This document shows, piece after piece, positions 9,478-41,668 of a stretch of DNA of 64,000 nt. The notes under the pieces are model-generated. The model made no database searches. It was not told the DNA's origin and worked only from the letters and a program-made list of their open reading frames with translations. The position numbers and the translations under genes are program-made. Origin of the DNA: Callorhinchus milii (Eukaryota); the NCBI RefSeq assembly GCF_018977255.1, contig NW_024704763.1:2976001-3040000 (forward strand), in the 5' to 3' direction. Position 1 is the first letter of the stretch. Each line of letters begins with the position of its first letter.

Positions 9478-9582
9478 GTTGACTCACTTTCCTTTCTCCG
9501 TAGACGCTGCCTGACCTGCTGAGCGTTCCCGGCGACTTCTGTTTTTGTTTCAGATTTCCAGCATCTGCAGTATTTTGCCTTT
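9478..9582 (+). mobile_element. Fragment of a common fish/shark repeat (Penelope-like terminal segment) between (CA)n/(TA)n tracts
   Basis: gacgctgcctgacctgctgag...tttgtttcagatttccagcatctgcagt recalled as a widespread chondrichthyan repeat end; family assignment from memory only. Confidence 0.4.
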
Positions 9583-9983
9583 TATCTGTATAGTGATATA
9601 TATATACATATATATATATATATGTGTATATGAGACTGTATATGAAGGCAGGAACACTAAACAAAGTCTTGTGTGCAGTGTGTAAGGGGCCGGGGTGCAT
9701 CACGAAGACCGCCTCGTGCGCTGATCTAGAAATTATAATTAGAAATGAGCTGCTTTAATAACAATAACAATAATCCTCGCATTTGATAGAGCGCTTTTCA
9801 CGCCGGGAGGACGTCCCAGAGCGCCGCACGGAACCCACCGTAAAGCGAATGGACTGCGTGTTCGTGGGCGTAACGCGGCAACCGATTGCGCGCAGCGGCC
9901 TCCGTCCCGCGGACAGCGGCGGGTCGGCAAGTGACCGAGTTATTATTATCGCTGTGGTCGGTTTGGGAGGGAATATTACCATT

Positions 9984-10595
9984 GGGGGCTGTGTGTGTGT
10001 GTGTGTGTGTGGGGGGGGGGGGGCTGTGTGTGGGTGTGTGTGTGGGGCTGTGTGTGTGTGTGGGGGTGTAAGTGTGTGTGGGGGGATGTGTGTGTGTGGC
10101 TGTGTGTGTGTGGGTGTGTGTGTGGGGCTGTGTGTGTGTGTGTNNNNNNNNNNNNNNNNNNNNNNNNNNNNNNNNNNNNNNNNNNNNNNNNNNNNNNNNN
10201 NNNNNNNNNNNNNNNNNNNNNNNNNNNNNNNNNNNNNNNNNNNNNNNNNNNNNNNNNNNNNNNNNNNNNNNNNNNNNNNNNNNNNNNNNNNNNNNNNNNN
10301 NNNNNNNNNNNNNNNNNNNNNNNNNNNNNNNNNNNNNNNNNNNNNNNNNNNNNNNNNNNNNNNNNNNNNNNNNNNNNNNNNNNNNNNNNNNNNNNNNNNN
10401 NNNNNNNNNNNNNNNNNNNNNNNNNNNNNNNNNNNNNNNNNNNNNNNNNNNNNNNNNNNNNNNNNNNNNNNNNNNNNNNNNNNNNNNNNNNNNNNNNNNN
10501 NNNNNNNNNNNNNNNNNNNNNNNNNNNNNNCCCTGTGACCTGTGCCTGGGATTGATCTCGGGGGGGGGGGTGGGGGGGGGGTTGGGGTTTGGGGG
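9984..10595. repeat. (GT)n/GGGG low-complexity array spanning assembly gap 10144-10530
   Basis: Repeated tgtgtgtggggc units, N run, then G runs at 10560-10595. Confidence 0.9.
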
Positions 10596-10981: not shown

Positions 10982-11014
<33 letters not shown>

Positions 11015-11510
11015 TGTTGATCGTCGGTCAAAGGGAGTGGCGGCTGATGGTCGGCCAACCGGACCGGAGCAACATTGTTGCCAGAGGTGTAGCAATAATG
11101 TATACAAACGAACCATCTTCCGGGGACGTCCCAAAGCGCTTCGCAGGACACACTGTCCAGGGCGTTGACTGTCCCCCAACCATCGCGCACAGCAATGTCC
11201 CCACACAACGGTCGCGGATCGAAAATGACCCATTTTTATTGTCGTTTTTTTGGGGGGAGGGATTATTATTATTATTATTATTAGGGCCGCGGGTGGAGTA
11301 AGGAAACTTGCCCGAGGTTTCGCCCTGACCTCTGCCGGGAAAACTTGCCTTTATGTAGCGCCCTTCACGCCGGGCTAGCGTCTCGGAGCGCTTCAGCAGC
11401 TCGCGTTTAAACGCATGGGCGCGAAGCTGCGATGGCTCGCACGACACGGCGTGCGTCGTAATACACCGCATGCTTATACCCCCCCCCCCCCCCCCCGCAC
11501 CCCCCACAAA
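10600..11510 (-). promoter_or_regulatory. CpG-rich putative AFG2B promoter with candidate non-coding first exon (donor at 10754)
   Basis: High CpG density; - strand donor ...GGACAC|gtgaga at 10755/10754; the first coding exon begins at a clean acceptor (gttctgttcag|) at 8869, so an upstream exon is expected. Confidence 0.5.
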
Positions 11511-12100: not shown

Positions 12101-13951
12101 TCACGGGTTACCCTGCGGCCTTACTCGCTTGTACACTCGATAGAAAATATAGGAGAACAGAATAGTTATGGCTGCATTGAAGACAAGTTGCATCGATCGC
12201 AGCGCAGACCCAGGGGGAGGGATTCTGGTGATCTCCTGAATGTCAATTGTTTTGTCCCAGTTTTCAATCATCCCAGGCACGTGCCCAGCGCCAACCACGA
12301 CCACTACAATAGCCGGAAATCTCGTCCCGTCCTTCAGTGGGATGGGCTTGGCTGCCCGCCGAGCGGCGTGCACCAGGAACTGGTCTCTCTCGGAGATCAG
12401 GACCCTGGTCAGGCTGGGCGACTGCTTGTGACTCTCCGCCAGGATTTCTTCCACCGCTTCCTTCTTCTTCATTTCCTCAACCCTGGCTTTGGAAATGTTG
12501 GTGGCGGTCTGTCGCTTTGGCGAGTCGTACGTAACCACTTTGTACAGCGTGGTGAAATCCACGGCTCCCAGCACTCGCCTCAAAGTCACCTCGATGGAAC
12601 GGTCTCCCAACAGAACCCTACAGCCCGGAACCTGCTCGGCCGCGGAGAACGCCACTCTCATCTCCCCACCTGGAGCCATGTTTAGCTTCTTGGTGACTTT
12701 GGCCTGGATCAGGATTATTGTTGACTGAACCAGGCCGAGACCCAAACCATTGCGTCTTATCGTGCGGCCAATTTTGGACAGACTCAGGGACTGGGCCTCC
12801 TTCAGCGCCATGTCCTCAGGCAACAGCATCACATCTTCTCTTCCACTGCACAGCTCCACCATCACCACATCAGGCTGCATGGCCCTCACCATCTTGAGAT
12901 ACAGAGAGAGAGAGAGAGAGAGAGGGAGGGAGAGGTAACAGGGCATTTACCATCAGCTTAGAGACAGAGGAAATACCAGTGGACAGTACTCATCAACTAC
13001 CTGCTTGAAAACTCTGGACTGAAATTATCTCACCAAGCTATTTTCTCGAAGATCCTCACACTCATCTTCAAATCCTTTCGCACCCTGGCACCTCCCATCT
13101 CTCCGACCCATTTCCTCTCCAAACTGCTTACTCCCCAACCCATTACCTGCTTGGCAGCTTTCAGCCGCTTCCACCCCAAAACTCATTCCCTCAATCCCTC
13201 TGCTTTTCCCCTTTCTTCAGGTCACATCGGAAAACCTTCCTCGTCCCTCTGGCTCGGCATCATGCTCTGCCAATGTCGAGGATACTACCCCGCATGAGGG
13301 GCGCAATATAAATCCAAGTTGTTGTTATAAATTGGAAAGCAAATTGAACACTTTTTTTCTGAAACAGACTTATAGAGTTACACCGGTCTCTCCAAAAAGA
13401 CCTACCTGTAGCACATCTTGTTGACTCTGTTCACTGAAATGTGCCACCCCGACCACATAAACACGGCTCCCGTCAGCGGTCTGCAGGAGGGTCACGCTCT
13501 CAGGAGGCGTGAAGCCCTCCACATGGCGCAATGCTCGTCTCTTCTCCAAATCCGCCAGATCTTTCTCCTCATATTCGATCACTGCCTCCAAGTCATTGGC
13601 GTCCAGAACCTCCACTCCCGCTTCCGAATCCAAGTCCGGCTGGTCGTTGACGCCTCCCGGAAAGATGAAAGGACCGGGCTTGCTTCCCACTTTGCCGCCG
13701 AGCAACAGTTGGCTAATCAGAGACCAAGAGGCTAGAGAAGAGTACGGAAAGCAGTTGTTTCGTAAAGAAGTCCTCCTCGTCTGATCACTGCCCTGGTTCT
13801 GCACGGGTTTGCTGAGCGAGGCGTCTGATGCATCGCTCCATCTCTGCACAGGCTGAAGCCTGTGGTTTACCAGGTCCCAGAGAAGCCAGTTTCTAACGTC
13901 CTGGGCACCAGCTCCAGGGAGCCGCCTGCACCATCGAATTGTCCTGAACAT
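12101..13951 (-). CDS. TraB-domain protein, divergent TRABD paralogue; 2 coding exons, 445 aa, C-terminal tail anchor
   Basis: Exons 13951-13406 (CAG|gtagg) and 12892-12101 (ctcaag|ATG...TGA), phase 0, no stops. Motifs GSRVYVVGVAHFS, QPDVVMVELC, MAPGGE, LGDR, ERD, VVVGAGHVPG match TRABD/TraB. Hydrophobic tail LVFNAAITILFSYIFY followed by basic RVYKRVR. ATTAAA on - strand at 12079-12084. Candidate upstream acceptor at 14006. Confidence 0.88.
13030..13330 (+). mobile_element. Decayed L2 LINE 3' fragment inside the TRABD-like intron
   Basis: Translates to KILTLIFKSFRTLAP (L2 ORF2 C-terminus-like); ends ggcgcaatataaatccaagttgttgtt. Confidence 0.65.
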
Positions 13952-14199
13952 CTGACACAACCGGCTCCTCTCACCCTGCGATCTCTATCCTCAAACCGCT
14001 GTTTTGCTTTTAGAATAAGAACAAAAGAAATGTAATAATTCTTGCGTGCCAATTGGATGCCACGCTTCGCCCGTAAAAGACACAGTCAATCCGCTTTACA
14101 GTACTATCCCGTGAAGCGCTTTAAGATGTCTTGACAGCGTGTAATGCATCAGAAAAATGCAACGATAACCGGACCCAGGAAAACAAATACTTCGCCGCA

Positions 14200-15353
14200 G
14201 CTTGGATCACCCCATTAACCGCAGGGGACCTGTATCTTCAGCTGAAGTTAGGGTTACGTACGCCTCGTTACTGGCTGCGCAGGGCATGCGGGCGAATCTT
14301 TAGCCCGACCCCCCCGCCCCCCCGAAAGATTGCCCCACAAAATAATCACAGCAAGAACTAAATAGCAATAGGATTTATGTCATTAATCGAGAAATTATTT
14401 CTATGGTGGGACGTTTGTTTTGTTGGTCAAACCAAAGAGGTTGTCACCACTGCTTTAGACGGACGTTGGGTTATACAATGATGAAGAGGAAGAGACACAG
14501 AGAGAGGGAGGGGAGAGGGGAGAGAGAGAGAGAGAGAGACCCAGTGGAAGGATCTGGACAGCGTTCGCCTTTTCCTGATCTATTTCCGGGGATTCCCCCC
14601 CTCCCGGGATTGATACATTCAGTCTGACTGACGTCACAGAGCGGCGCAGTGACGCGTCGTGGGGAGGGGGAACCCCGGGGATATCCCGAGAAACCACACA
14701 AACCAGGCGGCCGCCCCCCCTCTCCCCCAACCCCCACCCCCACCACTCTCCCCCAACCCCCACACCCCCACCCTCTCCCCCACCACCACCCCCACCCTCT
14801 CCCACACCATCACCCCCACCCTCTCCCCCAACCCTCACCCCCACCACTCTCCCCCAACCCTCATCCCCACCACTCTCCCCCAACCCCCACCCCCACCCCT
14901 CTCCCCCAACCCCACCCTCACCCCTCTCCCCCAACCCCACCCCCACCACTCTCCCCCAACCCCCACCCCCACCACTCTCCCCCAACCCTCACCCCCACCA
15001 CTCTCCCCCAACCCCCACCCCCACCACTCTCCCCAACCCCCACCCCCACCACTCTCCCCCAACCCTCACCCCCACCACTCTCCCCCAACCCTCACCCCCA
15101 CCACTCTCCCCCACCACTCTCCCTCTCCCTCTCCCCCACCACTCACCCCTCTCCCCCACTGCTCTCCCCCACTCCTCTCCCCCAACCCCCACCCCTCTCC
15201 CCCACCCCAGAGCTTGGGTTGGATCGGGTTGGGAATCGCTTGCGAATAATTCCCGGGAATCTCGTCAGTCGGATCCCCCTTCCCCCCCCCCCGCCCCCCG
15301 GGAAAGCGGAAATCCGAGTCACACACCAAACCTGGTGTGAGGGGGTGTGAGGG
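14200..15353. promoter_or_regulatory. Shared head-to-head CpG promoter region of the TRABD-like gene and ARPIN
   Basis: Divergent start codons 1.4 kb apart (13951 -, 15354 +); full CRE TGACGTCA at 14629-14636 plus half-site TGACG at 14650; CpG-rich. Confidence 0.65.
14715..15208. repeat. C-rich minisatellite (unit ~CCCCACCACTCTCCCCCAACCCT/C)
   Basis: Tandem ~20-25 nt units, essentially no G on + strand. Confidence 0.9.
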
Positions 15354-18300
15354 ATGAGTCGGATTTACGATAACGCGGTCCTTAGGAACAAACCTGTGAA
15401 CTCGGAGCAGGTGTCTGCGCTCTGGGAGCCGGTGGCCCTCCAGGGGTAGGTACAGGGGGGGGGGGACCACTGGAACTGGAGGGGTTTTTTTTTTTTGGGG
15501 GGGGGGGAAGAAACGAGCAAATCACTGAGTTAGGGGGAAAGGGAAGAGAGCCTGGGAAGGGGGATCGGATCCACCAGCGCTCCCCACTTTCTGTCTATCC
15601 GTTTTCCCACTGGTCACCCTCTGCACTCCTCTCATCTGCAAACATTTGCTCCTCTCCATTCCCCTCGTCGCTGTTCCCACTTCTATCTGTTGCTCCAATT
15701 AACCCCCACCCACCCCCACTCTTGATTCCAACCCCCAGCTCAGGTAACCTTACGTCCAGCGCCTTGGGAAGTCCTTCCGAGATGAAGGGCGCAAAATAAA
15801 TGTGGTGGTCCGAACCGGTTTCACGGGAACTCATGTTTTCCAGTTTAAAGTAAAAGATGCCAACGTTTCGAAGCTTTCGTTTTGAGAACTTATCCGACCC
15901 TCCCAGTTTTGTTCGGTTTTATTTCGCTGCCGCCCTTGGACGGCAATCATTCTGCGAACACATGCCAGAGGGCTGGCATAGCAGAGCGCCCCTCCCATCA
16001 CGATCTCAAGAGCCAAAGTACTCTTGTGTATCCACTTGGTTTGAAAATACTGTAATTTGTTTAAATTGTGAGCGTGCCTGGCTCCGAGACGCTTTGTTAA
16101 CCTTACAACCACTGGATCTTGCAGAGGTAATGGAGTGATCCTGGAAGGGGAGTTGGTGGACGTCTCCCGCCATGTGATCACAGATAGCGGTAAAAATAAG
16201 GTAAGAAAATATTTTGAAGTATTTCCGTGTGTGCTCCGACAACCGGTTATCATTAACTGCCCCCTTACCAGTGGCCGAATCATTTAACAGTGTTGGTAGC
16301 ATCATCTCCTGGGTCAGAAGGTGGTGGGATCCAAGCCCCATGTCAGGACTTTTGAGCGAGGCTGACCATCAAATGCAGTCCTGGGGATCACTGCATTTTC
16401 AGAGGTGCTGATTTTCGGATGACGTCTAAAGGTCTATTAGTTAGGTGGATGTTAAATATCCCAGAGAAGAGAGTTTCTCTCCCTTCACAAAATAGGTGCT
16501 CAAGCACACACAACGATTAATACACCAATCCTAAAATATGGGAGAAAATATATAGTTTGAAAACAAATACAGGCTGAATAATATAAAAGTCTCATTATAG
16601 AATGCAAAGCTAGGAAAGGAAGATTAATGTATTAAAATACCATCATGGGGATTTTTTAGGATCGCTACTTTATTCTGTACATCAAACCGACAAGGATCCA
16701 CAAGAGAAAGTTTGATTCTCTCGGAGTGGAGATGGAACCAAACTTCAGTGATACAAAGAAAGTAAACACGGGCTACTTGATGTCTTCCTTCAGTGAGTAT
16801 GGAATTATAATAATAATAATCCTTGCATTTGATACAGTGCCTTATTACATCATTGAGACATATCAATGCACTTCACAGGATATTCTTTGAAGTGCATTGA
16901 CTGTGTATTTTGTGGGTGAAACGTGGCAGCCAAATGCACACGGCAGTGTCCCGTAAACAGTCGTGGATTGAGTGATTACATTTTCTTTCGTAAATTATTA
17001 CCCTCTGAAAGCAATCCGCCAATCAACTAACAACTGGGTTCCTACTTACTGCTAGGTAAACAGAGGAGTGTGGAGTATGGAAACTTGCCCAAGGTTTCGC
17101 TTGGGAATCAAACCTGGTCCACTTGCTTGCGAGGTGAGCGCACTAACCACTATGGGAGTAAGCCGTGGCCTGAACTTTCTACTTTTTGTCTTGTCATGTG
17201 CTACACTGCTGGACAGAAGTGGAAGCCAAAGGACAGACAGACAAGATATCAGTAGAGGAGCTGAAGAGACTGCTGAGCAAACCGGCGCTGCTGAGAATCT
17301 CCGAGAAGTACACGCCCGACCACACAGTGGCCTTTTGGCTCCCCGAGGGGGAAATGGAAAAAATTGAGCTTGAGATGGGAGATGTTTTGCGTTTGAAGAC
17401 CAGAGGTGACGGACCGTTTATCTGTAAGTGACAAGCTAGAGGCTTTAAACCATCCAAAATACCCAATAGATAGTCATTAAGACCAATTTGCCATAAAAAT
17501 TGAAGGTTGGCAAGCATTCTGGGAAATTCTGTCTTAATTAACGATTCAAGACACTAAGGGGGCTATATAAATACAAGTTGCTGTTGTGGTTAATTTGGAA
17601 GACAAGTCTTTTTGTTGTCATTCAGTGAAATACCCGCAAAGAAACCGCAATTGACTAATTTTCAAGAAGTTTCAAGTCTTAACTAAAGGTCTCCAGAATC
17701 AGCAGGTTCCACAATAATAAAACATGGTATTCATTGATTATTTTTACAGTTACTTTGGCAAAAGTGGATGCTGGAACCGTAACGAAATGCAACTTTGCAG
17801 GCGATCAGGTTGCTGGAGTCTCCTGGACTGAAAAAGTCTTCGCTGCTAAAACTCAAAAGGAGCAAGACTCCAAAAGTGGTGGGCAAGGAGAAGGTGCAGA
17901 GGAGGATGAATGGGTGAGATGGGAAAGCAGACTGAACTGATTGTGGGAGCTGTTCCTCTTAGAGATGTTTAAATGGAGGATCAATGCCCAGACACTGATT
18001 ACGCGACACTGAAACATTGGAGTATTCCAAACCCTGGCAAAATTCAGTAGCCTATTCAATAGGTTGGGGGATGCATCCAAGCCCAATCCTTTCCTAACTT
18101 GATACGGACACTGGCCTGCCCCACATCCCCTGCCCTGCCTGCTCCACTGTCAGAGTTCAGGCCCTTATCCTTCCTGTACCCACCCTTCTGGAACTCAATC
18201 CTGGTGTCCCTTCACCTCATCCACTCCCTTGCCTCCTTCAAGGCCCGTCTCAAGACTTTCCTCTTTGACTGTGCTTTTGTTCATCTTCCCACCACCACCC

Positions 18301-41511: not shown

Positions 41512-41668
41512 NNNNNNNNNNNNNNNNNNNNNNNNNNNNNNNNNNNNNNNNNNNNNNNNNNNNNNNNNNNNNNNNNNNNNNNNNNNNNNNNNNNNNNNNN
41601 NNNNNNNNNNNNNNNNNNNNNNNNNNNNNNNNNNNNNNNNNNNNNNNNNNNNNNNNNNNNNNNNNNCA

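Follow-up and report, generated by a model that had tools for sequence, protein, structure and literature searches.

Here we report a spliced and divergent member of the TRABD family in the chimaera Callorhinchus milii, encoded on the minus strand (13951-12101) of a 64,000-nt stretch of genomic DNA (contig NW_024704763.1, positions 2,976,001 to 3,040,000), which is referred to as the window and within which all positions are numbered. The gene is real and ancient, belongs to a known family in which it is so far unstudied, and combines an unusual structure (two exons, 445 codons plus TAA, zero internal stops) with an active-site change that its coelacanth counterpart shares. With little more than even confidence, we read it as a spliced, partially processed TRABD retrogene of the vertebrate stem that encodes a predicted tail-anchored mitochondrial outer-membrane hydrolase with an altered substrate preference.

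The original prediction, made from the letters of the window, described a two-exon frame of 445 codons with one intron and an ATTAAA 16 nt after the stop, and both were recovered at the expected positions (Table 1). The frame is supported by the open reading frames and by intron-skipping contigs: in three of four sequencing runs (X5, X8 and X12, from three studies), a single contig maps to both exons, which speaks for a transcribed and spliced gene, the RNA status of the four runs being the tool's guess. The fourth run (X1) covers intron sequence, and a search of the runs found none carrying the gene that is on record as RNA. Two letters are unaligned in each exon-joining contig, and masking of the acceptor-side (AG)n tract kept the splice joint itself out of the table of joints; the predicted (AG)n-derived pyrimidine tract is indeed seen in the intron sequence. 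A contig end at 12084 in run X8 gives a weak hint for use of the ATTAAA. The transcribed 5' leader contains one upstream ATG about 198 nt ahead of the start codon.

The product is identical to the NCBI record XP_007903971.2 ('traB domain-containing protein-like', Callorhinchus milii), and three more 445-residue records differ from it at 3-5 positions. Nine coding differences occur within the species, seven amino-acid-changing and two silent, which are too few for a selection test. The gene is real, spliced and already present in databases as an automatic annotation; literature searches found no publication on this TRABD paralogue. Repeats occur in the leader and in the intron: a dispersed-repeat piece lies at about 14050-14135 in the leader, with five further copies in the window, and seven blastn matches of the intron elsewhere in the window are likewise dispersed-repeat pieces, with very high depth at 13232-13338.

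Table 1. Features of the TRABD paralogue and its upstream flank in the window.
Feature	Position	Strand	Description
Intergenic stretch between TRABD paralogue and ARPIN	14211..15353	.	head-to-head arrangement; candidate bidirectional promoter (inferred)
Transcribed 5' leader	13952..14210	-	at least 259 nt, unbroken with exon 1; contig of run X5 covering 13406-14210
Coding exon 1, codons 1-182	13406..13951	-	546 nt; open reading frame, contigs and predicted model
Content of exon 1			Arg-rich start, disordered extension (23-106), acidic stretch, start of TraB domain with GVAH (H171)
Single coding intron	12893..13405	-	513 nt, GT..AG, phase 0; ancestral TRABD intron position
Coding exon 2, codons 183-445 plus TAA	12101..12892	-	792 nt
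Content of exon 2			remaining TraB domain (E195, E259, D279-R280, E350-R351-D352, H386), predicted tail anchor (about 416-433), then basic residues
ATTAAA, candidate polyadenylation signal	12084-12079	-	starts 16 nt past the stop

The full protein matches the Pfam family TraB_PrgY_gumN (PF01963) with an E-value of 3.5e-15 (57 bits against a cut-off of 26.8), and the TraB signatures that had been proposed are all present: GVAHFS (H171), ELC (E195), ERD (350-352) and GAGH (H386). Nine residues (H171, E195, E259, D279, R280, E350, R351, D352 and H386) are the same in every one of the 34 aligned sequences, four of which are of prokaryote type. Position 169, two residues before H171, is Val in both the chimaera and the coelacanth paralogue; among 290 motif-matched eukaryote-type relatives (317 examined), the equivalent residue is Thr in 285, Val in one, and Thr or Ser in 288. 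The window protein lacks the Thr or Ser before the first His that marks the TRABD subfamily. When 97 columns conserved in 25 other animal-type TRABDs were compared, 62 were kept in both paralogues and 17 carried the same new residue in both, T169V among them.

The AlphaFold model has high pLDDT from about residue 107 to 440 and is disordered at 23-106, and its best structural matches are a TraB-family subunit of Tetrahymena complex IV, followed by ChaN and EreC. A search of the ESM Atlas with the whole protein returned only TraB clusters, and residues 1-110 gave no usable match there. The Tetrahymena TraB subunit was also the only significant match in a sequence search of the PDB; this accessory subunit of ciliate complex IV (7W5Z_E, 8B6H_DQ, 8BQS_DQ) is the only solved TraB-family structure found.

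The C-terminal helix has a 17-residue hydropathy of 1.73 and is followed by four basic residues in eight; no 19-residue window of the chimaera tail exceeds 1.5, and hydrophobicity is weak in the tail of the coelacanth protein (0.93). Tail-anchoring in the mitochondrial outer membrane has been shown for human TRABD, and the same paper states that its protease activity is untested (PMC12329661). The moderately hydrophobic helix and basic tail of the paralogue would insert into the outer membrane as in TRABD. The domain would face the cytosol, where it would bind or cleave a protein that takes part in mitochondrial dynamics or quality control. The set of partners would differ from that of TRABD, because both species have other residues in place of the Thr by the first His and at many helix positions. 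The predicted product is a TraB protein of the outer membrane that faces the cytosol and whose site still works but has been retuned. That it might instead have a TraB fold without catalysis, serving as a scaffold or binding a ligand, is suggested by the replacement of the near-invariant Thr by Val in both species, at a position that corresponds by alignment inference to one Glu of the 2His/2Glu set described for enzymes of the TIKI fold (PMC6254334), and by the fact that no activity is shown even for TRABD (PMC12329661). Nevertheless, with 41% divergence elsewhere, neither species has lost any of the nine invariant charged and His residues, and we regard the scaffold as unlikely.

The gene had been taken for a second, fast-diverging TRABD. 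It is a separate, divergent paralogue, but the count of two does not hold, as the species has three TRABD-like genes. A search via named protein records located the canonical gene (XP_007889144, 370 aa), whose product falls into one 90% cluster together with shark TRABD. Its contig is 69.3 Mb long, and that of the window gene's record 10.7 Mb. The third, also divergent copy (XP_007889147-150) is apparently on the contig of the canonical gene and belongs to a lineage that includes ray proteins (XP_072923093, XP_059842856) and coelacanth H3BBZ4. In this third lineage, the context of the second GxxH is altered in chimaera and ray, and the N-terminus of the chimaera copy is strongly basic. The window gene neither groups with vertebrate TRABD nor is the only or closest copy. 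The protein is 39.1% identical to the chimaera's own canonical TRABD, 42.2% to amphioxus TRABD and 34% to the third lineage, and canonical chimaera TRABD is 79-85% identical to its lungfish, frog and chicken counterparts.

A lineage-specific copy was not borne out, since the gene is ancient and has a counterpart in the coelacanth (XP_005989847 / H3BG56) that is 58.5% identical over 289 domain columns. This pair accounted for two of five and two of 28 matches in sequence searches, which held no other close relative. Among 1.84 billion cluster representatives, a profile built from the chimaera and coelacanth proteins scored the coelacanth protein at 764 bits and the next at 276. None of the 149 other representatives listed and none of 80 metagenome loci was closest to the paralogue, and a metagenome scan with the paralogue alignment yielded zero relatives among 195 pattern matches. 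The paralogue was not found in sharks, rays or other species by protein searches, among which those with a word index failed to pick up vertebrate TRABD (39% identity) and the 50% clusters display one representative each. More than ten shark and ray species have an annotated canonical TRABD, and we see a moderate sign that the paralogue may have been lost in these groups. Canonical coelacanth TRABD was absent among the best 120 of 532 matches.

Two kinds of unusual records were encountered in the family. Lizard and frog records named 'Selenoprotein O' sit in TRABD clusters, which suggests read-through models with an adjoining SELENOO at the canonical locus. In two arthropod-like records, TRABD is fused to a C-terminal region that resembles a SET-domain protein; these are possibly gene-model fusions of conserved neighbours.

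Phylogenetic trees were built from 104 (FastTree) and 40 (IQ-TREE) collected proteins, leaving out fragments and near-duplicates; no cyclostome sequence was identified. IQ-TREE recovered the chimaera-coelacanth clade with support of 100/100 and a stem of 1.66 changes per site. Canonical and third-lineage genes of vertebrates together formed another 100/100 clade, outside which the pair fell, at no resolved position among invertebrate TRABDs; FastTree gave a similar placement. The window gene does not group with the TRABD orthologues, in line with the proposal that it is a paralogue. In AU tests, a sister position of the paralogue clade to all vertebrate TRABD was not rejected (p 0.367), and a nested position was disfavoured, be it with only the canonical genes (p 0.025) or with only the third lineage (p 0.043), subject to the caution that applies to long branches. 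The simplest reading is that the duplication would have taken place on the vertebrate stem, before the split of chimaera and bony fish. We infer that conservation of the pair over that time cannot be neutral, and the purifying selection suggested in the original prediction gains support from the coelacanth counterpart.

The same trees bear on an older origin, in which the duplication would predate vertebrates and the paralogue would be all that is left of a second TRABD lineage of animals. The unconstrained tree puts the clade among invertebrates, outside the vertebrate clade, and identity to amphioxus TRABD is slightly higher than to chimaera TRABD. A stem as long as this one makes the placement unstable, however, the vertebrate-sister position is not rejected, and the absence of a closest relative among the listed representatives and metagenome loci also speaks against such a lineage. 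We consider this older origin improbable compared with a duplication on the vertebrate stem.

The single intron is informative about the route of duplication. The window boundary Q182|M183 aligns with canonical K88|T89, where three of 118 vertebrate TRABD proteins show a deletion of exactly 47 residues that extends from the homologous site to the next boundary; three of 118 drop the following 37 residues, and insertions cluster at four further sites. A scan of 80 metagenome loci found a GT-AG phase-0 intron at canonical 88 in 11 of them, a count that does not equal 11 independent lineages, as many of the loci have no intron or are incomplete, and some nearly duplicate each other. The scan was unbiased (825 position-phase combinations, of which 804 scored none), and its further peaks were at 135 in phase 0 (12 loci), 172 in phase 0 (18), 218 in phase 2 (6) and 126 in phase 1 (7). 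Intron-bearing loci score best mostly against invertebrate references. Seven loci, several of them insect-like, have the extra phase-1 intron at canonical 126 and lack the 135 intron where it is covered.

Judged by its position, which is common to mammals and invertebrates, and by its phase, the kept intron is ancestral and not gained. This agrees with one of two routes in the original prediction, a retrocopy that kept one ancestral intron, and contradicts the other, a complete retrocopy that later gained an intron from repeat sequence. The repeat fragments and the (AG)n tract inside the intron had pointed to such a gain; yet they say nothing about the origin of an intron whose position and phase equal those of the ancestral family intron, and intron gain is in effect already refuted and retains hardly any credibility.

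Other introns are missing. Exon 2 spans five canonical exon boundaries without interruption. The introns at canonical 135, 172 and 218 match mammalian isoform boundaries and are absent from it; the boundaries near 276 and 313 are known from isoform differences only and were not recovered as DNA introns in the scan. As in a retrogene, introns of the parent and of outgroups are missing, with five downstream boundaries absent, three of them confirmed by GT-AG introns in non-vertebrate loci. The upstream mammalian boundary at 38-40 has no counterpart in exon 1 and was probably lost too; intron loss is therefore not purely 3'-sided.

The gene order in the window is an AAA ATPase (minus), the TRABD paralogue (minus), ARPIN (plus, ATG at 15354), an AP-3 sigma gene (plus, from 20466) and an M1 aminopeptidase (plus). 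A location between the ATPase and ARPIN had been predicted, and Pfam matches of the neighbours agree with it (Arpin on the plus strand; on the minus strand, an ATPase with two AAA domains). We take the AAA ATPase to be AFG2B, the AP-3 sigma gene to be AP3S2 and the M1 aminopeptidase to be ANPEP. The paralogue and ARPIN are head-to-head, about 1.1 kb apart, and the stretch between them, which contains CRE-like TGACGTCA at 14629 and TGACGCGT at 14650, may act as a bidirectional promoter. Just downstream of the 3' end of the gene, CpG-rich stretches (11001-11500 and 9501-10000) are probably the promoter region of the AAA ATPase on the same strand. Assembly gaps (N runs) occupy 10144-10530, between the coding exons of the paralogue and the ATPase, and 41512-41666.

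We consider retroposition of an incompletely spliced mRNA moderately probable as the origin, because introns were lost on both sides of the survivor, the N-terminus is new, the site is apart from the parent and the gene is head-to-head with ARPIN. On the vertebrate stem, a TRABD mRNA from which the intron behind the first His motif had not yet been spliced would have been reverse-transcribed; the copy would have landed head-to-head with ARPIN and borrowed its promoter, and upstream sequence would have turned into the new N-terminus. The stem burst of change would have been followed by slower, selected evolution, and by loss of the gene in most other lineages. Partially processed retrogenes are described in a review, which also reports that about 11% of expressed mammalian retrocopies use head-to-head regulatory regions and that retrogene proteins can relocalise (PMC5470649). 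Neither a poly(A) remnant nor a target-site duplication was seen by eye downstream, and none is expected after more than 400 million years.

Alternatively, the gene could be a DNA-level duplicate (whole-genome or segmental) that encodes a protein of the same function as in the retrogene reading and that shed introns afterwards by recombining with its own cDNA. An ancestral intron was kept, a 3'-biased loss would account for the five that are missing downstream, and stepwise loss could likewise leave a single intron; furthermore, the split predates that of the canonical and third lineages, which is compatible with the early vertebrate genome duplications. The upstream boundary is without an intron too, however, the 5' leader is continuous over at least 259 nt, and the N-terminus is new. 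The paralogue is on another contig than canonical TRABD. We assume that the human ARPIN-AP3S2-ANPEP block belongs to a different paralogon from 22q13, the site of TRABD, which argues against an ohnologue. No gene-name matches were present in the paralogon and supplement tables of PMC3964593, PMC4641402, PMC8302630 and PMC7269912, a blank that carries no weight because these files may use database ids. A precedent for the duplicate is Pdx2, an ohnologue retained in parallel in cartilaginous fish and coelacanth (PMC2944030). Taken together, we judge a DNA-level duplicate somewhat unlikely.

The N-terminal extension comprises about 100 Arg-rich, poorly conserved residues. In the chimaera, M1 is the only Met before H171 and there is no other between 1 and 183; the extension must therefore be translated for the product to include the first His motif. 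Residues 104-149 are conserved with the coelacanth (none of 2000 shuffles scored as high), and residues 1-100 are no more similar than expected by chance (781 of 2000). Five of the seven amino-acid-changing variants fall in residues 1-107, and the coelacanth has an alternative start at M92. Matches to ATG8-interacting motifs as in plant TRB1/2 (W/F/Y-x-x-L/I/V) occur in the extension, none of them common to both species, and were discarded.

The Arg-rich start could be a cleavable mitochondrial presequence, with the domain imported, facing the matrix, and the C-terminal helix in the inner membrane. Both paralogues begin net-positive, acid-free and amphipathic (a net charge of +3 and +4 over 30 residues, no acid before positions 18 and 30, and hydrophobic moments of 0.77 and 0.62), compared with a net of -4 and an acid at position 3 in the median relative; M1 is the sole Met before H171 in the chimaera, and complex IV of Tetrahymena includes a TraB-family subunit (PMC10060162). 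The chimaera protein nevertheless failed the initial cut-off (net +4 or more), and the relaxed cut-off, chosen after seeing the data, also passes 17 of 279 other proteins, 16 of which have a later Met, so that such starts often stem from gene models. The lack of similarity between the species over residues 1-100, the concentration of variants and the possible coelacanth start at M92 likewise count against import. The basic amphipathic start resembles a targeting peptide, but may also be a translated 5' leader, and we consider matrix import fairly unlikely. Less likely still is a wider scenario with three TRABDs in early jawed vertebrates. One of them, a partially processed retrogene, would have acquired a presequence, and its remodelled TraB/TIKI-fold site, formerly on the cytosolic side of the outer membrane, would have come to lie at the inner membrane, facing the matrix; only chimaeras and coelacanths would have kept this gene.

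TRABD has only recently been tied to mitochondrial dynamics. A variant kept for more than 400 million years with all invariant catalytic-type residues provides a comparison for the residues that set activity and partner choice; what it offers against TRABD is the change of the Thr beside the first His and of the surrounding helices. The gene is also a vertebrate paralogue that had stayed hidden, apparently retained in just two lineages, both slowly evolving, and it is a candidate one-intron retrogene with a date. Its reach is one small gene family, and it represents no new kind of system.

In comparison with known systems, the window gene resembles vertebrate TRABD (C. milii XP_007889144; human and mouse, PMC12329661) in the PF01963 domain, the invariant His/Glu/Arg/His set, the C-terminal hydrophobic helix with a basic flank and the intron at the K88|T89-equivalent site. 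It differs in its single coding intron, compared with six or more boundaries in domain and tail of the canonical gene, in GVAH instead of GTAH, remodelled helices (240-345), 39% identity and other neighbours, and in a long extension with a basic start in place of a short acidic N-terminus. Between the chimaera and lobe-finned lineages, the paralogue has a path length of 1.01 against 0.29 and 0.16 in TRABD, which is about 3.5-6.5 times faster. The coelacanth protein, its likely orthologue, has the same GVAH, the conserved segment 104-149 and the 17 shared replacements, but its first 100 residues are unalignable above chance and its tail is less hydrophobic. The third TRABD-like lineage is likewise a divergent, unstudied paralogue of chimaera and coelacanth; unlike the window gene, it groups with canonical TRABD (100/100), keeps the Thr before the first His and is apparently on the contig of the canonical gene in both the chimaera and Hemitrygon.

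Tiki proteins are described as GPI-anchored Wnt proteases of the plasma membrane. The His/Glu/Arg/His site is common to the TIKI superfamily (Tiki/TRABD2A-B, erythromycin esterases, ChaN) and the Tetrahymena subunit (7W5Z_E, 8B6H_DQ), and Foldseek matched the window model to the TraB subunit (E 9e-7), ChaN (0.027) and EreC (0.04), with identities (12-18%) and TM-scores (0.15-0.37) that are both low; unlike in Tiki, nothing in the window gene suggests a GPI anchor or a role as Wnt protease. Like Pdx2, which was retained in cartilaginous fish and coelacanth and lost in ray-finned fish and tetrapods, the paralogue has survived in a chimaera and the coelacanth; unlike Pdx2, an ohnologue that is also present in sharks and skates (PMC2944030), it is intron-poor and was found only in this one chimaera and the coelacanth.
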